Source: a virus
Direction: 5' to 3' (one strand)
IMG/VR virus record: IMGVR_UViG_3300030085_001980
Length of the DNA stretch: 64,000 nucleotides
Numbering within the stretch: the first letter of the stretch is position 1; each line of letters opens with the position of its first letter. This document shows, piece after piece, positions 6,339 to 62,295 of this stretch. Below the pieces are notes generated by a model that made no database searches, had not been told where the DNA came from, and was given only the letters and a program-made list of their open reading frames with translations. The position numbers and the translations under genes were made by a program.

Positions 6339-9300
6339 TTAGAGAGCAGCGATACGGGTCTTGAAGTCAGCGAAGCTGGTAGAAGCAGCGACAGTTGCTT
6401 TCAGGGTGGTGAGATCAATCGTCTCAGCCTGCAGAGCGGTGTCTGCCTTGGTGCCTTGTGCAGCAGTTGCATAATCAGAAGATGCTGTTGCAGCGGCAGT
6501 GCCAAGAGTGGGTTTGCCAGTCAGGTCAGCATATGCTCCAGAGAAGAGCGTAGGCAAGTTAGACAGATCATTGTAAGATCCACTCGTTGCTACAGTTGCC
6601 AGATCTCCTGGTTGTGTAGCGGAATCTGCCAGAGCACCCTGTGCAGTAGTAGCAGCGAGAGCACCGATACGAGCATCAACACGAGCCTCTGTGTAGTAAA
6701 GGTTAGTGCCTTCTGCAAGATCAGTTGTAGTCGCTGCAGCAATACGTGCATCAGCGCGAGCATCTGTATAATAAAGATTGCTACCTTCAGTCAGATCATC
6801 TGTAGTTGCGTTTGCAATACGGGCGTCAGCACGGGCATCAGTGTAATAAAGATTCGTACCTTCAGTAAGATTGGTTGTAGACTTACCTGCGAGACTTGCG
6901 TCAAAGCGTGCCTCAGTGTAGAAGATGTTTGTAGAACCTTCTGTGATATTGTCGGTGTTGATGTCAGCCTGAACTGCGGACAACGTAAGCATATTGCCTG
7001 CGTCATCGTACGTTGCCGAAATACCTGTGCCGCCATTGATCAAACTAGCAACACGATCATCAACTCTCTCATCAGTGAAGTAGAGGTTGGTGGATCCTTC
7101 AGTCAGAGCATCGGTATCGTGGTTAGCGATAGAACCAACCTGAGACTGGAAGAAGGTAATGGTTCCAGTAACGTTCAAGTTACCCTGAACCTCAAAGTTC
7201 GTTTGTGAAACGAAGTTGTTAACAGTAAGAGTGTTAGAAGATGGGTTGTAAGTAAGGTTGTTAGAGTCGGTACGAATCTCAGTGTAACCGTTGTTCGCAG
7301 AAACGAATGTTGGGTAGTACGTGAGGTTGGATGTTGGCGTGTTAGTAACGTTTGCCAGATCCGACTTATCAGCAGTACCAGTCAAGTCACCAGTTACGTC
7401 ACCAGTGATTTGTCCAGTAACACCCAGAGTGCCACCGATAGTTGCTGCTTGTGCAACGTTCAGAGTACCATCGGTGCTGATGTTACCGTTGCTTGACAGG
7501 ATAGTGGTCTTAACACCACCGCTGCCACCGACCATAAAGTTGCCGCCAACGTTCAGTCTCTTAGCAACAGAGATGCCACCAGCAGTGTACAGTGCAGCAG
7601 AAGTATTGTTATATCCAGTAGAGTCAGAAGACTTCAGGATACGTACAATACCACTAACGTTAGTGGTAGAGTTGGAGTTGCTGATAGCAATCGAGGTTCC
7701 ACTCAGAGTTGTGGTTCCAGTTGCATTGAATACGGCTGCAGTTGTAGTTCCAACAATATCCAGTGAACCAGCAATATCTGTGTTACCAGATGTAGAGTTA
7801 ACGTTAAACTTATTGGTGTTGATTGCAAGGTTACCACCAAGCAGCAAGGAAGACTGGAGGTTAGCGGTAGAAGTTGCAGTAAATCCAGCAACGGTTGTTG
7901 CCTGAGTTACATCCAACGTACCTGCAACAGCAGTGTTTCCTGTAGGTCCATCAACAGTAAAGTTGCCACTACCAACGTTAAAGTCGTCACCGATGAATGC
8001 CTTCTTGGTTACAGAAAGACCACCAGCGGTGAAGAGAGAAACATTTGTGTTGGTTGCGCTGGTTGCGTCAGTACCATTATTGAAACGTGCTTTCTCAGTG
8101 TACGTCTGAATGCCTGCATAGTTGACAGTACCGTCAATGACGGAGTTGCCATAAACGCGAACATCACCTTGAGTAACCAGATTGCCACCGATAGATGCAC
8201 CACCAGTAACTCTAAGAGCACCATCACCACTGTAAGAACCAGTCGTGGTTGCTGCAGAACCGTTAGTGAGAGTGGTGATTCCAGTAACACCCAAAGTATT
8301 ATTAACATTGGTTGCACCACTGACATCCAATGTGTTGTTTAGAGTCGTCCCAGAGGTCACTGCAAGGGTGCTGGACAGCGTTGTTGCCTGTGTTACACCC
8401 AAAGTACCACCGATAGTGGTATTACTGCTTACAGAAAGACCAGACTGGAGAGTTGCTTGACCAGCAGATGTGAACGTACCTGCAACAACAGTGTTACCAG
8501 TTGCAGATGCAACAGTAAACTTATTGGTATTGATTCTAAAATCATCGGTGAGATCAAAGTCACCAGTTACGTCAAGGTTGCCACCGATTGCTGCATCATC
8601 GCCAACTGAGAGATCATCGCCCACATAAAGATCGAGACCGATGCCAGCACCGCCACCAACGACGAGAGCACCAGAAGATGTGTTGGACGCATTGGTTGTA
8701 TCAAATAGTTTTATCGATCCTACATCAAGACCAGATCTTGTACCAGAGAATGCCTCAGAAGAATTGGTTGCATTGTGATAAAATGCAAATCTGGATTGAG
8801 AATTGTCCCAACCAAAGAAACCGCGACGTGCTTGGCTGTTGGAATAGTATCTGAACTCGATACCTCTGTCCTTAGCATCAGCCTGAGTGGGATCAGTGTC
8901 ACCACCCAAAGTGAAGATAGGATCGTCGAGGGTTTGAGTTGTGGAGTTAATAGTTGTTGTAGCACCATTAACAGTCAGGTTGCCTTCCAGTACGGTATTA
9001 CCGTCAACTGTAAAGTCACCATTAACAGTAGCGTTGTCAGTAAAGGTAGCATCGCTGTTGACTGTCAATGTGTCAGTGTTGGCATTACCAACAGTGACGT
9101 TATGTGTAAATGAGGTCGGATTATTAAAGGTTGCCTCACCGTGGACTGTAAGGGTACCAGCAGAGTTAGAACCCTGACCCACACGTCCAATCTCGGTGTT
9201 ACCAGATTCACCAAGGACACTGAACTCAACAGTGTCACCAGAATTCAGTTTACCGATGTACAGGTCATCACCAATGTGGAGGTCGGTAGCAATACCAGCA

Positions 9301-54732: not shown

Positions 54733-54921
54733 TCAACAATCGTCCCCCACATTCACAGAGTAGCAGAGCCCTTCGGTCACATAATAATCGATGAGTTGTT
54801 TATACTCAGTGTACCACGGTTCTTGTTCAGTGTCAACCAAATATTGCACCCACTCGATGATCTCTTGAGGGGGCAGATTACCCTCCTCATAGAGTTCAGC
54901 GAAGATCGAATACTTCTTCAC
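54733..54921 (-). CDS. Hypothetical protein
   Basis: Last ORF of a 3-gene operon. Confidence 0.7.
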   Translation of the reverse strand: MKKYSIFAELYEEGNLPPQEIIEWVQYLVDTEQEPWYTEYKQLIDYYVTEGLCYSVNVGDDC

Positions 54922-55291: not shown

Positions 55292-55320
55292 AATATAGAA
55301 GATTTTTCAGAATTTGTCAA
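55292..55320 (-). promoter_or_regulatory. sigma70 promoter TTGACA-N17-TATATT
   Basis: Plus strand AATATA 55292-55297 and TGTCAA 55315-55320. Confidence 0.8.
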
Positions 55321-55500: not shown

Positions 55501-55841
55501 TTACGGATTAAACCACCGTAAGTTACTATAATGGTCATTTAGTTTGTCTCCGTCGATGTGTCTAACCTGTTGGTAATACTGGTCATTAGTTGATATAAAG
55601 GCGTCTGCACATAGACGCGCAATTCTTCTTACTACTGTCTTACCATTTTGTCTTAGTGTTACTCTCCTATAACCATTTTCGTTTAGATGTGTGTTTAACT
55701 CTCTCCACTTGCCATACTTTGTGGAAAACACATTGCCGTGTTCGTTGATAAAATATTCTTCGTAATTAGGGATGGGTTTGTATAACGTACCGTCTTGATC
55801 TTTGTACGTTGTTTCATCTACTTTGGTGAATGAGTAAATCA
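55501..55841 (-). CDS. NUMOD4-HNH free-standing endonuclease
   Basis: KPIPNYEEYFINEHGNVFS, NGYRRVTL, VRHIDGDKLND...NLRW; start probably MIYSF. Confidence 0.8.
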
Positions 55842-56497: not shown

Positions 56498-56523
56498 AAA
56501 AAAGGAGGGGTTTTATACCCTCC
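56498..56523 (-). terminator. Terminator GGAGGG-N8-CCCTCC-TTTTTT
   Basis: 6-bp stem plus U tract at the end of the module array. Confidence 0.75.
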
Positions 56524-56552
56524 ATTATGTATCATTTTGCGTGATTTGTCAA
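56524..56552 (-). promoter_or_regulatory. sigma70-like promoter TTGACA-N17-CATAAT
   Basis: Upstream of the oxygenase; the start site would fall inside the terminator hairpin. Confidence 0.55.
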
Positions 56553-56645
56553 ATGTTTGTCAGAGGGTTGGTTATTAACAAACTTGAGACGGATAGGGCG
56601 AGAATTGATACGAATAGCGTTTGCAGTACGTTGTTCACGAGACAT
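56532..56645 (-). CDS. Possible 37-aa peptide
   Basis: MSREQRTANAIRINSRPIRLKFVNN...; abuts the upstream ORF. Confidence 0.35.
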   Translation of the reverse strand: MSREQRTANAIRINSRPIRLKFVNNQPSDKHLTNHAK

Positions 56646-56646
56646 T

Positions 56647-56778
56647 TCAAAGTTGATCGAGTTGGCGTTGAATAGTGGCGTTGCGCTCATTGATAACATC
56701 GGACAAAGTTGAGTCCATTAGTTGAATACCAAGGTTTGCACCGAGGATAACAAAGAGAGCAACAAAGAAGATACGCAT
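56647..56778 (-). CDS. 43-aa protein with N-terminal TM segment
   Basis: MRIFFVALFVILGANLGIQLMDSTLSDVINERNATIQRQLDQL. Confidence 0.65.
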   Translation of the reverse strand: MRIFFVALFVILGANLGIQLMDSTLSDVINERNATIQRQLDQL

Positions 56779-56810
56779 TTGTGTTAGTGAAGAAGGTGAA
56801 CTTAGGGTTA

Positions 56811-57158
56811 TCAGGCGAAGATGTAACCGTTGTCAAATTCTTCAGTCACAAACTTAGATTGTCCGTTGATTGCGCCTGCAAACTTACGAACAAACCACTT
56901 ATAGTTCTTCTGAAAAACACCTTCGCCATCAATACAAAACTCCTCGCAAAGTGCATTAAGACGAGATTTTGTAGTGACAGTTTGCCAACCACCATCGAAG
57001 ATTGTCATATCGTTGTCAGAAACCTCAGCAATTTTGTTGCCGTGGAGACGTACAATAGAGACGCCAGATTCTTCGTTAAAGTGAACCGAAGTGTTGCCAG
57101 ACTGCCAGTTGATGTTCTTCTGAACAGCGGCACACATTTGAGATTCGATCTTACGCAT
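56811..57158 (-). CDS. Hypothetical early protein
   Basis: MRKIESQM...LHGNKIA...DGGWQTVTTKSRLNAL; first gene after module site 1. Confidence 0.8.
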   Translation of the reverse strand: MRKIESQMCAAVQKNINWQSGNTSVHFNEESGVSIVRLHGNKIAEVSDNDMTIFDGGWQTVTTKSRLNALCEEFCIDGEGVFQKNYKWFVRKFAGAINGQSKFVTEEFDNGYIFA

Positions 57159-57220
57159 TTTGTGGTTGAAAGTGAAGTGAATTGGTGTCGGTTGGTTGGT
57201 TTCCCTCCCTCCCGATGTCT

Positions 57221-57280
57221 TTATTATAGGGCGTCAGGAGCGCCTGTAAGGGGGTTCGGTGACAGTTTATGGACTGGCAC
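57221..57280 (-). promoter_or_regulatory. Module promoter 1: GTGCCAGT-N6-ACTGTCAC plus -10 TATAAT
   Basis: Inverted repeat 57259-57280; TATAAT about 30 nt downstream. Confidence 0.75.
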
Positions 57281-57292
57281 ACCCTAGAGGCG

Positions 57293-57505
57293 TTAATTGA
57301 TACTTTTGAGCATATAATGGTAGTCAATATCTAACACAGGAAAACCGATCGCAGTTGTTATCTCCTCCACCAAATCTTCGCTGTCTGCTGCTTCCCAAAC
57401 CGTGCACAATACTTCGTCGATAATATCTTGCTGCATTTGTGGTGATGCTTCAAAGTCATCATCTTTGAAGTCGATGTTAATTGCTTCAACGCGGAAAGTG
57501 TTCAT
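57293..57505 (-). CDS. Acidic hypothetical protein
   Basis: Start set at MNTFRVE. Confidence 0.7.
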   Translation of the reverse strand: MNTFRVEAINIDFKDDDFEASPQMQQDIIDEVLCTVWEAADSEDLVEEITTAIGFPVLDIDYHYMLKSIN

Positions 57506-57539
57506 AATAGTGCGGAGAATTGGTGTACGTTGCGCGGTA

Positions 57540-57767
57540 TCAACCGCCAAACATTTCATCGAAGAGGTTTTCAGACTCTTGCAATTCTGCGTGGCGATCA
57601 AGTTCATCACGAGCAGAAACCAACGCCGCTTGCTTCATCTTAATTTTGTTAAGTTCCTCGTTGATGTAATGCAAACGAGTGTTAATTTGACAGCGGTCCA
57701 TACCATTCACGGTGGGCATATCGTAAGAAGTGCCGTTGATGATTCGTGGTTGCATAATAACAGTCAT
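57540..57767 (-). CDS. Hypothetical protein
   Basis: Start set at MTVIMQPR. Confidence 0.65.
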   Translation of the reverse strand: MTVIMQPRIINGTSYDMPTVNGMDRCQINTRLHYINEELNKIKMKQAALVSARDELDRHAELQESENLFDEMFGG

Positions 57768-57796
57768 TGTGAAAAATTGAGTGAAGTTTGTGTTAA

Positions 57797-58033
57797 TCAG
57801 GCGTCGAGATCTTGAGCAGCGTCCCACATATCGTAGAACAGATCCCACGCGGGACCATCAGCAACAAAGGAGGAACATTCTGCCTGATCGCATACCCAAT
57901 CGTACGCCATATCGATGTCGGCGTTGTTATCGAGAATGAATTCGTGCAGTCCTTGGATTGCACTAATGAAGGCAGGATCTTGAACGAGAGAGATATATTT
58001 TTTGCCTTGGTCGTTGGTCACTGTGATGGTCAT
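57797..58033 (-). CDS. Acidic hypothetical protein
   Basis: Start MTITVTND, with RBS AAAGGAA upstream. Confidence 0.7.
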   Translation of the reverse strand: MTITVTNDQGKKYISLVQDPAFISAIQGLHEFILDNNADIDMAYDWVCDQAECSSFVADGPAWDLFYDMWDAAQDLDA

Positions 58034-58054
58034 TTGGTTTCCTTTGTTCATACC

Positions 58055-58115
58055 AGTATGATGGCACAGAATCAGGGCGTTTGGGGAGAATGGTGGACAC
58101 TCTCCCGACTGTCAC
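58055..58115 (-). promoter_or_regulatory. Module promoter 2: GTGACAGT-N6-AGTGTCCA plus -10 CATACT
   Basis: Inverted repeat 58094-58115. Confidence 0.7.
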
Positions 58116-58471
58116 TGCCAACCAGTCATTTCACTAGGTTCTGAGCGAGAATCTTCGATGTAGTTTGCATCATCTAGATATGCATTAATTTCATCGTCAG
58201 TGAGCGTACCCTCAGCAAATTGTCTGAACTCGTCATCATCTGCACCGTGATAGTTGTGCACTTCGTCACACAATTCATAGTCAGATAATTGTGCCATTCC
58301 ATCAGTCAAGAGATCATAAACGAGTTGCTCCATTGTCTTATAGTCCATCCCTTCGATCATCCTTTCGGCATAAGTTTCGATGAGATCTTGACGACGATCG
58401 GAGTTGATTTCGAGCACGGGAGACATAGGATTAGGAGAGGAGAAAGGTACAAAAACAGGGTGCATATTCAT
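58112..58471 (-). CDS. Acidic hypothetical protein
   Basis: ORF; start may be MSPVLE. Confidence 0.65.
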   Translation of the reverse strand: MNMHPVFVPFSSPNPMSPVLEINSDRRQDLIETYAERMIEGMDYKTMEQLVYDLLTDGMAQLSDYELCDEVHNYHGADDDEFRQFAEGTLTDDEINAYLDDANYIEDSRSEPSEMTGWQ

Positions 58472-58663
58472 TCGCCTACACCATAATCAGCATACAACCA
58501 TTCAAATTTGGGTGCACTTTCAGGATCAACACCATCTACAACAAACTCACTGAAGATTGCTGCTGCTGTTTCAAAATTATCGTTCTCAACGTGTTGTGCA
58601 ATCATCTTGAGATATTGCTCCGTGAGGATGTCAATACCGATGTCAACATTGTCGTTTTTCATA
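58468..58663 (-). CDS. Acidic hypothetical protein
   Basis: Start set at MKNDNV. Confidence 0.65.
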
Positions 58664-58756
58664 ATCAATGGGGAACGAATGTACGTTGGAAAAATGTTAG
58701 TAGTGGGGAGATCTCGCGGCAGGAGATACAATTACATAGACCCACTATGTGATAGT

Positions 58757-59023
58757 TTAGCAGTACAGGGGCATATACTCAGAGGAAGGCATTTTGTCAG
58801 TATTGAAACCAGTAACCTTAGCACCGTTTGCGATACGTTGGTTCCAATCATATTTTGCTTCGATGCCAAGAACTGTGCTGTAGGATTTCATACCATTAGC
58901 ACGGAAAGTGACACGCTTAACGAAACGTTTGACCGTGACTTTCATACCTTTGGTGTCATCTGCCTCGGCAATAAATGCCTCAGGGAAATAATCAACAATG
59001 GTGGCGGAGTTGGTGACTTGCAT
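58757..59023 (-). CDS. Hypothetical early protein
   Basis: MQVTNSATIVDYFPEAFIAEA..., with RBS AAGGAA upstream. Confidence 0.75.
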   Translation of the reverse strand: MQVTNSATIVDYFPEAFIAEADDTKGMKVTVKRFVKRVTFRANGMKSYSTVLGIEAKYDWNQRIANGAKVTGFNTDKMPSSEYMPLYC

Positions 59024-59030
59024 TGGTTGC

Positions 59031-59105
59031 GTTCCTTTGACTCTTTTAATATACACGGGATTGGTGCCCGTGGGGAGAATAGTGGACAGTTTGTGCAACT
59101 GGCAC
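59031..59105 (-). promoter_or_regulatory. Module promoter 3: GTGCCAGT-N7-ACTGTCCA plus -10 TATATT
   Basis: Inverted repeat 59083-59105; 27-bp block identical to that in module 4. Confidence 0.75.
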
Positions 59106-59108
59106 ACG

Positions 59109-59318
59109 TCAGACGATCTCAGTCCATTTTTTATGGTTTGCTTTGGTGATTCTCCCATCTGCTAACAAGTTGTCACACACATTGCAGAAGACGTTAAACT
59201 TTTCTGTGCGGTCCAATGTATCAACGCCGTTGCAGGTCTTGATAACATCGAGGATCATTTTCTTGGAGTGAACCATTTTGCTGTAGATGGGGAAAGTTGC
59301 AGTGGTCATTGTCATCAA
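59109..59318 (-). CDS. Small protein, paralogue of 59632..59796
   Basis: D..........D.L..DG.IT.......W pattern. Confidence 0.7.
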   Translation of the reverse strand: MMTMTTATFPIYSKMVHSKKMILDVIKTCNGVDTLDRTEKFNVFCNVCDNLLADGRITKANHKKWTEIV

Positions 59319-59650
59319 ACGTACTGAAGTTTACCGACGAGAGTCTTAACCTCAAAATTATTGTAGGCACCCATTGTGATCGTACGATCGTTAGGGAGGA
59401 TGCTCAGATCTTCACGAACTTGCCAGAAGTTGTCTCCTTGAATGACAACAGCGAACCCGAAACATCCAGGCACTGGCATCATAAACAAACCGTGCTTTTC
59501 TGCCTGCTTCGCTGATGCAAATCCACGAGCATTGATGGACCATTCTTTACCTTCAGAATCCTTACCGAAGTAGACACAAATGAAGTCAGTCATTGTTGTT
59601 AATGAAGAGTGAAAAGTGTTGGTGTACGTTATCAGAAAGGGCAGGTCCAA
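59315..59650 (-). CDS. Hypothetical protein (start probably MTDFICV)
   Basis: ORF overlapping the downstream gene. Confidence 0.65.
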   Translation of the reverse strand: MDLPFLITYTNTFHSSLTTMTDFICVYFGKDSEGKEWSINARGFASAKQAEKHGLFMMPVPGCFGFAVVIQGDNFWQVREDLSILPNDRTITMGAYNNFEVKTLVGKLQYV

Positions 59651-59796
59651 GTTTCATATTGCTTCATCGTAATATAACCATCTCGGCACAACATATCGGT
59701 GTAAAGTCCCCAAGCATAACGCATTGCGGGTTTGTCGTTGAGACCTTCGGGGACAGATACTGCCAGAAAGTTTGCTTTTGCTTCGCGTTTGGTCAT
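59632..59796 (-). CDS. 54-aa protein (not in ORF track)
   Basis: MTKREAKANFLAVSVPEGLNDKPAMRYAWGLYTDMLCRDGYITMKQYETWTCPF; RBS AAGGAA. Confidence 0.75.
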   Translation of the reverse strand: MTKREAKANFLAVSVPEGLNDKPAMRYAWGLYTDMLCRDGYITMKQYETWTCPF

Positions 59797-59805
59797 TTGA
59801 GTGGT

Positions 59806-59879
59806 GTTCCTTTGACTCTTTTAATATACACGATTTTGGGGTGCTGTGGGGCAATGGTGTGCACCTTGCCGACCGTCAC
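59806..59879 (-). promoter_or_regulatory. Module promoter 4: degenerate GTGACGGT-N6-GGTGCACA plus -10 TATATT
   Basis: Inverted repeat 59858-59879; 27-bp block identical to that in module 3. Confidence 0.65.
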
Positions 59880-60436
59880 AGCACGCGGGTGCCGAATTGT
59901 TGAATCATTTTGTTTGGGATAGTATAACCCAGACGGGGATCTTTTCTCACCTTGGTTGACTCATACTGTTTTTTGAGGTTAGGTAGAAGAATTGCAATCA
60001 CGTCAAGTGCATCCATTCGCCAGATTTCTTGGATCTTGCCTGACTCATAGCGTGCATAGTAGTGATTAGCATACTTGCCAATCTTTTCCTCTTGAATATA
60101 CTCTACTTGTTTCTCCCAAGTATCCTGAACACTGATACCATTGTACGTTGCTGTTAGTTTCTTGCCAATCGTTGATTTATACTCACAGGGACCATCTTGA
60201 TCGTATGCATCAGCACCACTATAATCGTCGGCAATAGTGTGACCTAAGATGCCTGCCATATGTATTTCACGAGAGCGAGCATAAGAGAAAGGATCACCCC
60301 ACTCATTTGCCTCGCAAAGTGCATACATTTGCTCGAACAGTTGTTGATACTGTTGCTCAGGAGTCATTGTAGTAAGATCAGCAGTTTTATCGCAGAAAGT
60401 GTCAAATGCCTCTCTGATGTTTGTAAGTTCTTGCAT
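59876..60436 (-). CDS. PvuII-like PD-(D/E)xK endonuclease
   Basis: GADAYDQDGPCEYKS resembles the PvuII active site GNDAVDNAGQEYELKS; flanking segments also resemble PvuII (compared from memory). Confidence 0.65.
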   Translation of the reverse strand: MQELTNIREAFDTFCDKTADLTTMTPEQQYQQLFEQMYALCEANEWGDPFSYARSREIHMAGILGHTIADDYSGADAYDQDGPCEYKSTIGKKLTATYNGISVQDTWEKQVEYIQEEKIGKYANHYYARYESGKIQEIWRMDALDVIAILLPNLKKQYESTKVRKDPRLGYTIPNKMIQQFGTRVL

Positions 60437-60459
60437 TTGGGTGAATTGCTTTGACTCTT

Positions 60460-60520
60460 ATAGTATTGCATTAAAAAGCGCCCTCTGGGGGCGCTGGTGG
60501 ACACTTTAACGTACTGTCAC
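60460..60520 (-). promoter_or_regulatory. Module promoter 5: GTGACAGT-N7-AGTGTCCA, embedded terminator, -10 TACTAT
   Basis: Inverted repeat 60498-60520. Confidence 0.75.
60473..60495 (-). terminator. Terminator AGCGCCC-N5-GGGCGCT-TTTT
   Basis: GC-rich stem plus U tract. Confidence 0.75.
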
Positions 60521-60526
60521 ACGGTA

Positions 60527-60931
60527 TCACCAATGGGTGCCAAGGTGAGACATTGTTGATGTAAATGCTGTAAATGTTGCGGCGTCAGTGATATTTGTGG
60601 TGGAAACTCTTGCCGCTGCTTCATCCTTACCGATGTCACCATCAGATGTAACGAATCCCCAAACTTTGACGACTCCACCTCTATCAGCAGGAGCAGTTCC
60701 TACGATCTCGATGTCATCACCAGCAGCACGAGTTGCGAACGCCCAAGTAACTGAAGCGTCATCCGCTTCGATCTTACTTTTCTTCGCTTCCAGTCTAGTA
60801 TCAACACCGAAATTTGCGGTGCCGCTAGATGTCATTCTAGCGTCGATGTTTGCGAGTCTATACTGCTTTGCTTTTGCAACAAGGGCAGTACACAGTTCAC
60901 CCGCTTTGGTTGTTACTGCTTCGCTTGCCAT
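60527..60931 (-). CDS. Late-expressed hypothetical protein (134 aa)
   Basis: ORF with its own TATAAATA promoter; VWGFVTSDGDI motif. Confidence 0.75.
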   Translation of the reverse strand: MASEAVTTKAGELCTALVAKAKQYRLANIDARMTSSGTANFGVDTRLEAKKSKIEADDASVTWAFATRAAGDDIEIVGTAPADRGGVVKVWGFVTSDGDIGKDEAAARVSTTNITDAATFTAFTSTMSHLGTHW

Positions 60932-60959
60932 AACTTTCTAAAAGATTACTTTGCTGATC

Positions 60960-60967
60960 TATTTATA
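60960..60967 (-). promoter_or_regulatory. T4 late promoter TATAAATA
   Basis: Perfect consensus right after the helicase stop. Confidence 0.8.
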
Positions 60968-60968
60968 C

Positions 60969-62213
60969 TCAACGGACATACGAGTCAGGAGCAACACCTT
61001 TGACGAAGATACTATCAACAACACGCTGAAGACGCTCAACAGTATTCTTACCATAGTTTTTGTAGACAGGGACTGTCACAAATCCAGTGGATTTCTTGTA
61101 CATTTGGAGAGCACCAGCAGTGATCTTGCCTGCTTTGATGTTAGCAACGTCGTCGCGATCCATACGAATAACACGACCGATAGTTTGTGCCATCTCAACT
61201 ACATTCAGATTGCGAAGCAATACACAATGAGTGAGACCAGGCACGTTGATACCTTCAGACAGAATACTGTAGTGGAAGATGACAAATTTCTTGGTAGGAT
61301 CAGCACCCCAAGCAGTCAACGTACGGAAGAATTCTTCGCGTCCGACTTTCTTTTTGTTGACAAATGCACCGAACTTAGATGTAACGTGCAGCACATTGTA
61401 ACCACGCTCTGCAAGACGAGCGAGCAAATCTGTCTTGCCAATCATATTGCCAAGCACACGAGAAGATGGCACAGCAACCAGAATCTTTGCAGCGTGTTGT
61501 TCATCGAGATCAGCAATAATACCGTCTACAGTATCAGCATCGTTCTCGTGAGCATTGATCTTGAGTCGCTCAATATCTTGCTCGAAAGGAACAACAGTAG
61601 GAGACACGATGCAACCGTTGTTGATAAGTTCTGGTGCAGGTACGTTCTCAATAACTTGACCGTAAATCTCTGCGTTGTTCATACCCCTGCTATGAGAATT
61701 AGCAGTGCGAGGAGTAGCAGTGAAAAAATAGGTGGAATCAGAGTGAAGACTGCAAGCAGCAGTAGGAATGAAAAAATGGCGTGTGACACTGTTATGTGCT
61801 TCGTCAAAATAAGCACAATCAATATCAATCCCAGAATCGACAACACGGCGCAAAGAATGGTAAGTTGTGAAGATAATTACGGACTCACCTGCTGCACGAG
61901 CAGTGTTAGCGAACAAGGCAATCTTTTCAGACTTAGTGCTGCTGAAATACTTTGTTTCACCACTGTGGCAGTGACAGATGTGGGTCCAAGTGTTAGAAAC
62001 CTGCTGCATAAACTCATCACAGAGTTGATTAGCGAGCAGAATACGAGGAGCGACAACAACAATAGTTTTAGGACCAGTCTTCATCCTGCGGATGCAATCC
62101 TGAATCATAATGAATGTTTTACCGCCGCCAGTAGGTACAATGATTTGACCCTTATCGTGCTTGCTCATAGCAGCGAGAGCACGAACTTGATGGGGGCGAA
62201 GTGTAATGGTCAC
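60969..62213 (-). CDS. SF2 DEAH-box helicase (ResIII-like)
   Basis: PTGGGKT, FDEAH, TATPR, ILSEGINVP, QTIGRVIR. Confidence 0.92.
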   Translation of the reverse strand: MTITLRPHQVRALAAMSKHDKGQIIVPTGGGKTFIMIQDCIRRMKTGPKTIVVVAPRILLANQLCDEFMQQVSNTWTHICHCHSGETKYFSSTKSEKIALFANTARAAGESVIIFTTYHSLRRVVDSGIDIDCAYFDEAHNSVTRHFFIPTAACSLHSDSTYFFTATPRTANSHSRGMNNAEIYGQVIENVPAPELINNGCIVSPTVVPFEQDIERLKINAHENDADTVDGIIADLDEQHAAKILVAVPSSRVLGNMIGKTDLLARLAERGYNVLHVTSKFGAFVNKKKVGREEFFRTLTAWGADPTKKFVIFHYSILSEGINVPGLTHCVLLRNLNVVEMAQTIGRVIRMDRDDVANIKAGKITAGALQMYKKSTGFVTVPVYKNYGKNTVERLQRVVDSIFVKGVAPDSYVR

Positions 62214-62238
62214 AGTGGCGATTGATGTCGATGAATTA

Positions 62239-62295
62239 AATATACAGCAAAAAGACCCCGTGTGGGGTCAGAGTAGACAGTTATTCAACTGGCAG
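62239..62295 (-). promoter_or_regulatory. Module promoter 6: CTGCCAGT-N6-ACTGTCTA, embedded terminator, -10 TATATT
   Basis: Inverted repeat 62274-62295. Confidence 0.7.
62249..62269 (-). terminator. Terminator GACCCC-ACAC-GGGGTC-TTTTT
   Basis: Perfect 6-bp stem plus U tract. Confidence 0.8.

Follow-up and report, generated by a model that had tools for sequence, protein, structure and literature searches.

What reads a short inverted repeat that recurs at the head of one small gene module after another in a phage genome, and to what end? The question is raised by a stretch of 64,000 nucleotides (nt) from the IMG/VR virus record IMGVR_UViG_3300030085_001980 (the window), a region that is part of a T4-like cyanomyovirus (Kyanoviridae) and that carries six such repeats between positions 57,221 and 62,295, each followed by a −10 promoter box and a few small genes. 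An earlier note, made from the letters of the window alone, had placed six sites in this array and had offered two readings of them, either as an operator for a dimeric activator defining an early regulon or as the junction site of an integron-like cassette exchange system. All six sites were found where that note had put them, on the minus strand. They are very likely copies of an early-type promoter cassette of T4-like cyanophages, with a box that is read by a protein. In fact, the operator for a dimeric factor, lying upstream of −10 boxes without a −35 element, is the best-supported of the readings, because the geometry of the cassettes is fixed, the arms of the box are conserved without covarying, and the cassettes stand before homologous genes in four phage genera.

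Anatomy of the Cassette

The cassettes follow a common plan, in which a two-armed box (GTGMCAGT, 6–7 nt, RSTGTC(C)AC) is followed by a linker of 28–31 nt, a −10 box, and a leader that provides the ribosome-binding site (Table 1). Three of the six boxes fit this consensus exactly and two depart from it at a single position, while the box at 59857–59879 has three mismatches. The latter had been called degenerate, but its spacer and right arm recur in the cyanophage S-SZBM1 (locus L099, position 14845), where the left arm is of the consensus type, and the site is therefore better regarded as a conserved variant than as a product of decay. The core of the box, CAGT-N6/7-ASTGTC, occurs five times at 57–62 kb, always on the minus strand, against 1.24 copies expected in the whole 64-kb window. 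When the box was combined with a −10 hexamer at a distance of 27–32 nt, six matches were obtained with both strands counted, where 100 dinucleotide shuffles of the sequence averaged 0.21 and never exceeded 2.

A run of C residues and a −10 hexamer do follow each box, as had been noticed before, and the hexamer begins 28–31 nt past the right arm. The C-run occupies the −35 position of the cassettes, and a scan for sigma-70 promoters yielded a −35-like partner at just one of the six sites, which bears out the reported absence of a −35. The description of how the sites are placed among the genes was likewise accurate. The stop codon of the preceding gene lies within the box at sites 2, 4, and 6 and 3–12 nt ahead of it at sites 1, 3, and 5, and the layout of open reading frames (ORFs) in modules 1–6 confirms that one to three genes stand behind each site.

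Other features of the array had escaped the earlier note. At sites 5 and 6, the linker contains a G+C hairpin followed by five T residues, with linker fold energies of −13.3 kcal/mol in cassette 5 and −11.6 kcal/mol in cassette 6; with a terminator inside the linker, these two copies would act as combined stop and start signals. The leader AAGAGTCAAAG, which includes the ribosome-binding site, is common to three cassettes, and the stretch GTGTATATTAAAAGAGTCAAAGGAAC, running from the −10 box into the leader, is common to cassettes 3 and 4. The versions of this −10/leader segment look homogeneous within each genome, being TATATTAAAAGAG in the window (cassettes 3 and 4), TATTCTATAAGAG in the cyanophage Syn9, and GCAATACTATAAGAG in the cyanophage S-CAM22. 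Such homogenization per genome, seen even at orthologous promoters, suggests concerted evolution among the cassettes.

The leader of the Gp96-family gene behind cassette 1 is of another kind. It is unusually long, with 64 G-rich nucleotides (GGGAGGGAGGGAAACC...; window 57159–57222, minus strand), and the same G-rich leader is found behind the orthologous cassette of S-CAM22 (L001, about 7760–7820). This leader may be structured or may serve to control translation.

Conservation in Cyanophages and Environmental Contigs

The same architecture occurs in the intergenic gaps of the homologous region of Syn9, S-CAM22, and S-SZBM1. In Syn9, seven clear composite cassettes are located at 43–53 kb, all of them on the plus strand, in a cluster of small genes around the helicase gene, and the few further matches with up to two mismatches elsewhere in that genome look like chance. 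Together with those of the window, the cassettes of these phages form a compilation of 23, in which the left arm GTG[A/C]CAGT hardly varies and the right arm reads RSTGTC(C)AC. Between the arms, 18 cassettes have a spacer of 6 nt and the other 5 one of 7 nt; similarly, the distance from box to −10 is 28–29 nt in 18 of the 23 and 30–31 nt in 5.

The genes that follow are conserved along with the cassettes. The genes for the helicase, for proteins of 54, 88, and 78 amino acids (aa), and for the Gp96-like protein stand directly behind a cassette in the window, and the same was true of nearly all cases checked in the three relatives. The window helicase is 63–70% identical to its counterparts in Syn9, S-CAM22, and S-SZBM1, each of which is also preceded by a cassette. 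Homologues of the 54-aa protein are encoded directly behind a cassette in Syn9 (gp68), S-CAM22, and S-SZBM1, those of the 88-aa protein (76–78% identical) in Syn9 (gp73) and S-CAM22, and those of the 78-aa protein in S-CAM22 and S-SZBM1.

Environmental sequences widen this picture considerably. An exact-pattern scan of IMG/VR returned at least 120 stretches with the cassette pattern, and among 94 matches in 80 loaded loci, 78 have a −10-like hexamer 27–31 nt downstream, so that nearly all of them can be taken as true cassettes. Positions that the scan pattern left free show a T flanking the left arm on both sides, an A ahead of the right arm, and TG ahead of the −10 box; the T at position 9 of the left arm, for example, is present in 54 of 91 sites. 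The C-run also recurs in the environmental cassettes, 5–10 nt past the box and exactly at the position of a −35 hexamer. The occurrence of the cassette before homologous genes in relatives and in many environmental contigs points to a shared promoter, and the cassette is a predicted early-type promoter of T4-like cyanophages at large.

By the same search, no cassette was found in P-TIM68, a phage of high-light Prochlorococcus, where two weak Syn9-type boxes (locus positions of about 1890 and 15540) were the only traces. About ten small-gene units of P-TIM68 (L100, 10167–15840) are headed by a different, highly repeated element, CACTAAATGTTAGTTACCTCTAAATTGA..., followed by the leader TAATGTAATCAAGGAAT.

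A Protein Site Ahead of the −10 Box

An inverted repeat can act through the pairing of its arms or as a site for a protein, and the 23 compiled cassettes speak to this choice. Complementarity between the two arms averages 4.74 of 8 positions, which is what is obtained when partner arms are shuffled among sites (4.84 ± 0.15). In most sites, position 4 of the left arm, either A or C, does not pair with the opposite arm, and an extra C is present in the majority of right arms; both arms are nevertheless conserved as sequence, at a fixed distance to the −10 box. This lack of covariation between the arms argues that the box is a protein site and not a hairpin, and the candidate site has the features expected of an operator from which a two-headed protein acts on RNA polymerase.

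The hairpins in the linker are a separate matter. They were considered as a general feature of the cassette and rejected as such, since a fold of −8 kcal/mol or better is reached by only 10 of 75 environmental linkers, with T-runs in five. Linker hairpins are thus optional, and the stop-and-start property is limited to some copies.

According to the mechanism proposed here, each cassette would start transcription of one short module of one to three genes. Its promoter would consist of the −10 box, lacking a host-like −35, together with the two-armed box some 41–64 nt ahead of the presumed start (centre at about −53). A protein with two DNA-binding heads would read the box as double-stranded DNA and would recruit or stabilize the host RNA polymerase at an otherwise weak promoter, after which the leader would provide the ribosome-binding site. 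The sequence-free linker would, in two cassettes, also house the terminator of the preceding module. With the −35 missing, activation suggests itself, and we infer it rather than repression, along with the position of the transcription start and the early timing.

Relation to Known Promoters and Activator Sites

The earlier caution that motifs of this kind might already have been reported was well placed. A novel regulatory element reportedly controls the early genes of Syn9 and P-TIM40, while the middle genes are said to be under host-like promoters, and these elements are said to be abundant among T4-like cyanophages. The "novel early regulatory element" described by Doron et al. 2016 is very probably this cassette. 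The two agree in that they belong to the same phage group, that Syn9 too carries the cassette, ahead of its small genes at 43–53 kb, that it has no host-like −35, and that it is abundant in the environment. The sites in the window are very probably another instance of a promoter class reported for T4-like cyanophages.

Canonical host-like promoters also occur on the minus strand, just downstream of the array, at 55292–55320, 56524–56552, and 54808–54836. They consist of TTGACA, 17 nt, and TATATT, CATAAT, or TACACT, and are placed before a short basic ORF, within the end of module 1, and before more small ORFs. Unlike the cassettes, these promoters have a −35, which fits a second, middle-type promoter class.

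Among the class II activator sites of cyanobacteria, that of NtcA reads GTA-N8-TAC and that of CRP reads TGTGA-N6-TCACA. Both are likewise dyads lying ahead of a −10 box with no −35. In the phage box, however, the ends that resemble TGTGA and TCACA are 14 nt apart rather than 6, and the centre lies at about −53 rather than at −41.5; by inspection, consensus and spacing rule out both kinds of site.

Recombination at the Cassettes

The array also invites comparison with the promoter-early stem-loop (PeSL) cassettes of T4-type coliphages and vibriophages (PMC2839356, PMC4122927). Both are short, repeated regulatory cassettes between the small genes of a hyperplastic region in which module order varies among relatives. 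Some of the copies here may likewise combine a terminator with an early promoter, clear terminators being found in two of six cassettes and a hairpin that has no T-run in a third. There is no sequence relationship between them. Moreover, the cyanophage cassette has no sigma-70 −35 but an upstream protein box in its place, its stem-loop is optional and lies within the promoter, and recombination at its copies is only weakly indicated.

Like PeSL, the cassettes could double as homology patches for general (UvsX-type) recombination, a secondary role that would be compatible with a promoter function and that is conceivable but not probable. Module order is permuted between phages, and every unit that has moved opens with a cassette. 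In the window and in S-CAM22, for instance, the helicase module comes ahead of the 54-aa and 88-aa modules, but in Syn9 it comes behind them, and the 54-aa module is found at yet another place in S-SZBM1. Two environmental contigs that are 97.8% identical (L241 and L244) differ by the swap of a single gene behind a cassette, and the apparent homogenization of −10/leader versions within each genome would also agree with such exchange. Among contigs at least 90% identical, cassettes hold 14 of 166 unique breakpoints against 4.2 expected, a weak and indecisive excess over a uniform null that ignores both the intergenic position of the cassettes and the relatedness of the contigs. The other 92% of breakpoints lie outside cassettes, however, and a stable stem-loop of the PeSL kind is present in just two or three of the six window cassettes and in about 10 of 75 environmental linkers. 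At most, the cassettes serve as occasional homology patches for general recombination and not as dedicated exchange sites.

In the swap between the two IMG/VR contigs (L241 10333–10600 and L244 10348–10640), which is their only difference, an 83-aa gene has been exchanged for a distantly similar 88-aa gene. The left junction of the exchange falls within the −10/leader, and the 88-aa gene is a homologue of that at 58757–59023 in the window.

Which Protein Reads the Box?

The reader of the box is most likely a host factor that is already present at injection. One host operator offers itself for comparison, namely CGRE1 from the promoters of Yfr2 small RNAs in marine Synechococcus and Prochlorococcus, a palindrome of 21–22 nt that begins 55–57 nt ahead of the yfr2 start site (PMC6191309) and that is bound by PMM1637 (PlmA), a GntR regulator that activates transcription from there (Lambrecht et al. 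2018, PMC6191309). PlmA is named as a candidate because CGRE1, its published target, uses the same half-site of 8–10 nt as the phage box. The phage left arm agrees with the CGRE1 half-site, GTG[A/C]CAGTT[G/A], at 8 of 8 positions, and the two share both the A and C variants and the flanking T.

Host sequences for this comparison came from three complete marine Synechococcus genomes, found by a PsbA search, and from smaller Prochlorococcus-like genomes of the same family. Yfr2 genes were located with the Rfam model Cyano-1 and are present in 58 of 61 genomes sampled from the family. The exact 8-mer GTGMCAGT occurs on the RNA strand in 17 of 30 Yfr2 upstream regions, where about 0.1 would be expected, and the arrangement ACTGKCAC-N1/2-GTGMCAGT occurs in 13 of the 30. 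The exact 15-mer palindrome is found once per Synechococcus genome, always 16–18 nt ahead of the start of the Yfr2 model match. A single GntR-domain gene, with a frame of 334–339 aa, was detected in each of two host genomes searched. CGRE1 and the phage box both lie upstream of a −10 box, and CGRE1 promoters are activator-dependent; the phage cassette has its C-run at the −35 position.

The host sites themselves vary in placement. In four Synechococcus Yfr2 promoters (L088, L089, L090, and L092; genomes G001–G003), the CGRE1-type palindrome ends 14–16 nt before the Cyano-1 model start and so overlaps the −35 region. The distance from palindrome to Cyano-1 start is 49–55 nt in the smaller Prochlorococcus-like genomes, and at one of the Synechococcus promoters (L088), another 20 nt upstream, there is a third half-site.

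Tentatively, the cassettes may represent rearranged CGRE1 half-sites, by means of which the phage would borrow PlmA, the sole GntR regulator of the host and a partner of the PipX-PII module for nitrogen and energy signalling, to switch on its first genes. The literature searched yielded no link between cyanophages and either CGRE1 or PlmA. Several points weigh against the part given to PlmA. The host half-sites have their GTG ends turned inward and lie 1–2 nt apart, with centres 9 bp apart, whereas those of the phage have them turned outward, with 6–7 nt between the arms and centres 14–15 bp apart. Most phage right arms also carry the additional C. The phage box is centred at about −53, some 8 bp upstream of the CGRE1 centre at about −45 (positions from PMC6191309), and the three host genomes contain no exact match to half-sites arranged as in the phage. 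A rigid symmetric dimer cannot fit both arrangements. The idea that the phage site is a strict copy of the host site was dropped, given the absence of the phage-type arrangement from those genomes. With the order and spacing of its half-sites differing in this way from CGRE1, the box has in PlmA a candidate reader only, and a possible rather than a probable one.

These same differences lend something to another view, that the box is read by a protein supplied by the phage, either one injected with the DNA or one of the early or middle products, which would later turn the cassettes off. The missing host counterpart of the phage-type arrangement, and a spacing unlike that of the only known host site, would both be accommodated by such a protein. 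However, no GntR-domain gene was found in Syn9, S-CAM22, or S-SZBM1, and Syn9 gp230, the only product annotated as a "transcriptional regulator" in that phage, matches no Pfam family. In addition, a half-site identical to that of the host operator, down to the A and C variants and the flanking T, would be hard to explain if the reader were unrelated to the host, and a phage-supplied reader is on the whole rather doubtful. That the early element is reportedly novel and unlike host promoters speaks for a phage protein, whereas Syn9 is said to run the same programme in three different hosts, as would suit a universal host factor.

Hairpins and Site-Specific Exchange

The reading of the inverted repeat as a hairpin of RNA or single-stranded DNA, acting to stabilize 3′ ends, as a processing site, or as an N4-like hairpin promoter, would suit its location at the 3′ end of the preceding gene and, at sites 5 and 6, its transcription ahead of a terminator. 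It is nonetheless highly improbable, as the complementarity of the arms equals that of shuffled partners, the variable position 4 is mostly unmatched, most right arms have an extra base, and the arms are conserved as sequence; the hairpin was rejected for the absence of covariation. As for the integron-like junction of the earlier note, a core site for cassette exchange by a tyrosine recombinase, only the superficial 8-N6/7-8 geometry and the location between modules speak for it, and it has next to no chance of being right, since the three complete cassette-carrying genomes of Syn9, S-CAM22, and S-SZBM1 hold no gene of the Phage_integrase family (PF00589) and no annotated recombinase besides UvsX, the fixed distance to −10 box and leader is a property of promoters, only 8% of breakpoints fall in the elements, a weak enrichment, and the phage arms show neither the covariation nor the selection for a hairpin that a palindrome folding as single-stranded DNA, like attC, would be expected to have.

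The Window and Its Genes

Synechococcus phages such as S-CAM22 give patchy megablast matches to the window, with identities of about 80–89%. Every gene between 56.5 and 64 kb is on the minus strand, and most are small ORFs without a Pfam family; those with an assignment encode the helicase, a DUF7326 protein, and a Kyanoviridae Gp96-family protein. The best match of the 414-aa helicase among phage records is to S-SZBM1, at no more than 70% identity, and IMG/VR contigs matched it at no more than 77%. Beyond the array, an ORF of about 112–148 aa (55501–55839, minus strand) sits between a 2OG-Fe(II) oxygenase gene and a host-like promoter, and it might be an insertion of the homing-endonuclease type.

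Table 1. Promoter cassettes of the window and the modules behind them, in the direction of transcription. Box coordinates include a right arm of 9 nt.
Feature	Position	Strand	Details
Cassette 6	62239–62295	minus	Box 62273–62295; terminator hairpin and T5 62254–62269; −10 TATATT 62239–62244; heads the helicase module
Module 6 genes	60527–62213	minus	414-aa SF2 helicase 60969–62213, GTG start, Pfam ResIII/DEAD/Helicase_C; 134-aa ORF 60527–60931
Cassette 5	60460–60520	minus	Box 60497–60520; terminator hairpin and T5 60477–60495; −10 TACTAT 60460–60465; leader AAGAGTCAAAG
Module 5 gene	59876–60436	minus	186-aa ORF, no Pfam family; TGA stop within left arm of cassette 4; 49% identity to a P-TIM68 ORF
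Cassette 4	59823–59879	minus	Variant box 59857–59879 (3 mismatches); −10 TATATT 59823–59828; leader AAAAGAGTCAAAGGAAC
Module 4 genes	59109–59796	minus	ORFs of 54, 92, and 66 aa
Cassette 3	59048–59105	minus	Box 59082–59105; 6-bp linker hairpin, no T-run; −10 TATATT 59048–59053
Module 3 genes	58112–59023	minus	88-aa ORF; ORF of about 61 aa; 119-aa DUF7326 ORF (stop within cassette 2)
Cassette 2	58055–58115	minus	Box 58093–58115; −10 CATCAT/CATACT within 58055–58063
Module 2 genes	57293–58033	minus	78-aa ORF (start 58033); ORF of about 74 aa; 70-aa ORF
Cassette 1	57223–57280	minus	Box 57258–57280; −10 TATAAT 57223–57228; then the 64-nt G-rich leader
Module 1 genes	56504–57158	minus	115-aa Kyanoviridae Gp96-family protein (PF23790, E = 5e-52); micro-ORFs of 43 and 37 aa
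Terminator closing module 1	56504–56523	minus	Hairpin and T6

Implications for Cyanophage Infection

Among the main photosynthetic bacteria of the ocean, a large share die from infection by T4-like cyanophages. To our knowledge, these phages have none of the T4 proteins that reprogramme transcription, and for this reason the start of their gene programme in many different hosts still needs explaining at the level of proteins. The window adds nothing new on the promoter class as such; what it gives is a precise question, namely which protein reads the box. If the reader were PlmA, the start of infection would be coupled through it to the nitrogen and light status of the host, and the cassettes might also titrate PlmA off the Yfr2 small RNAs. 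The question is sharpened by the finding that the box and the only known PlmA target are built on one half-site in different geometries, which makes a universal regulator of the host a possible switch for the early genes of the phage.

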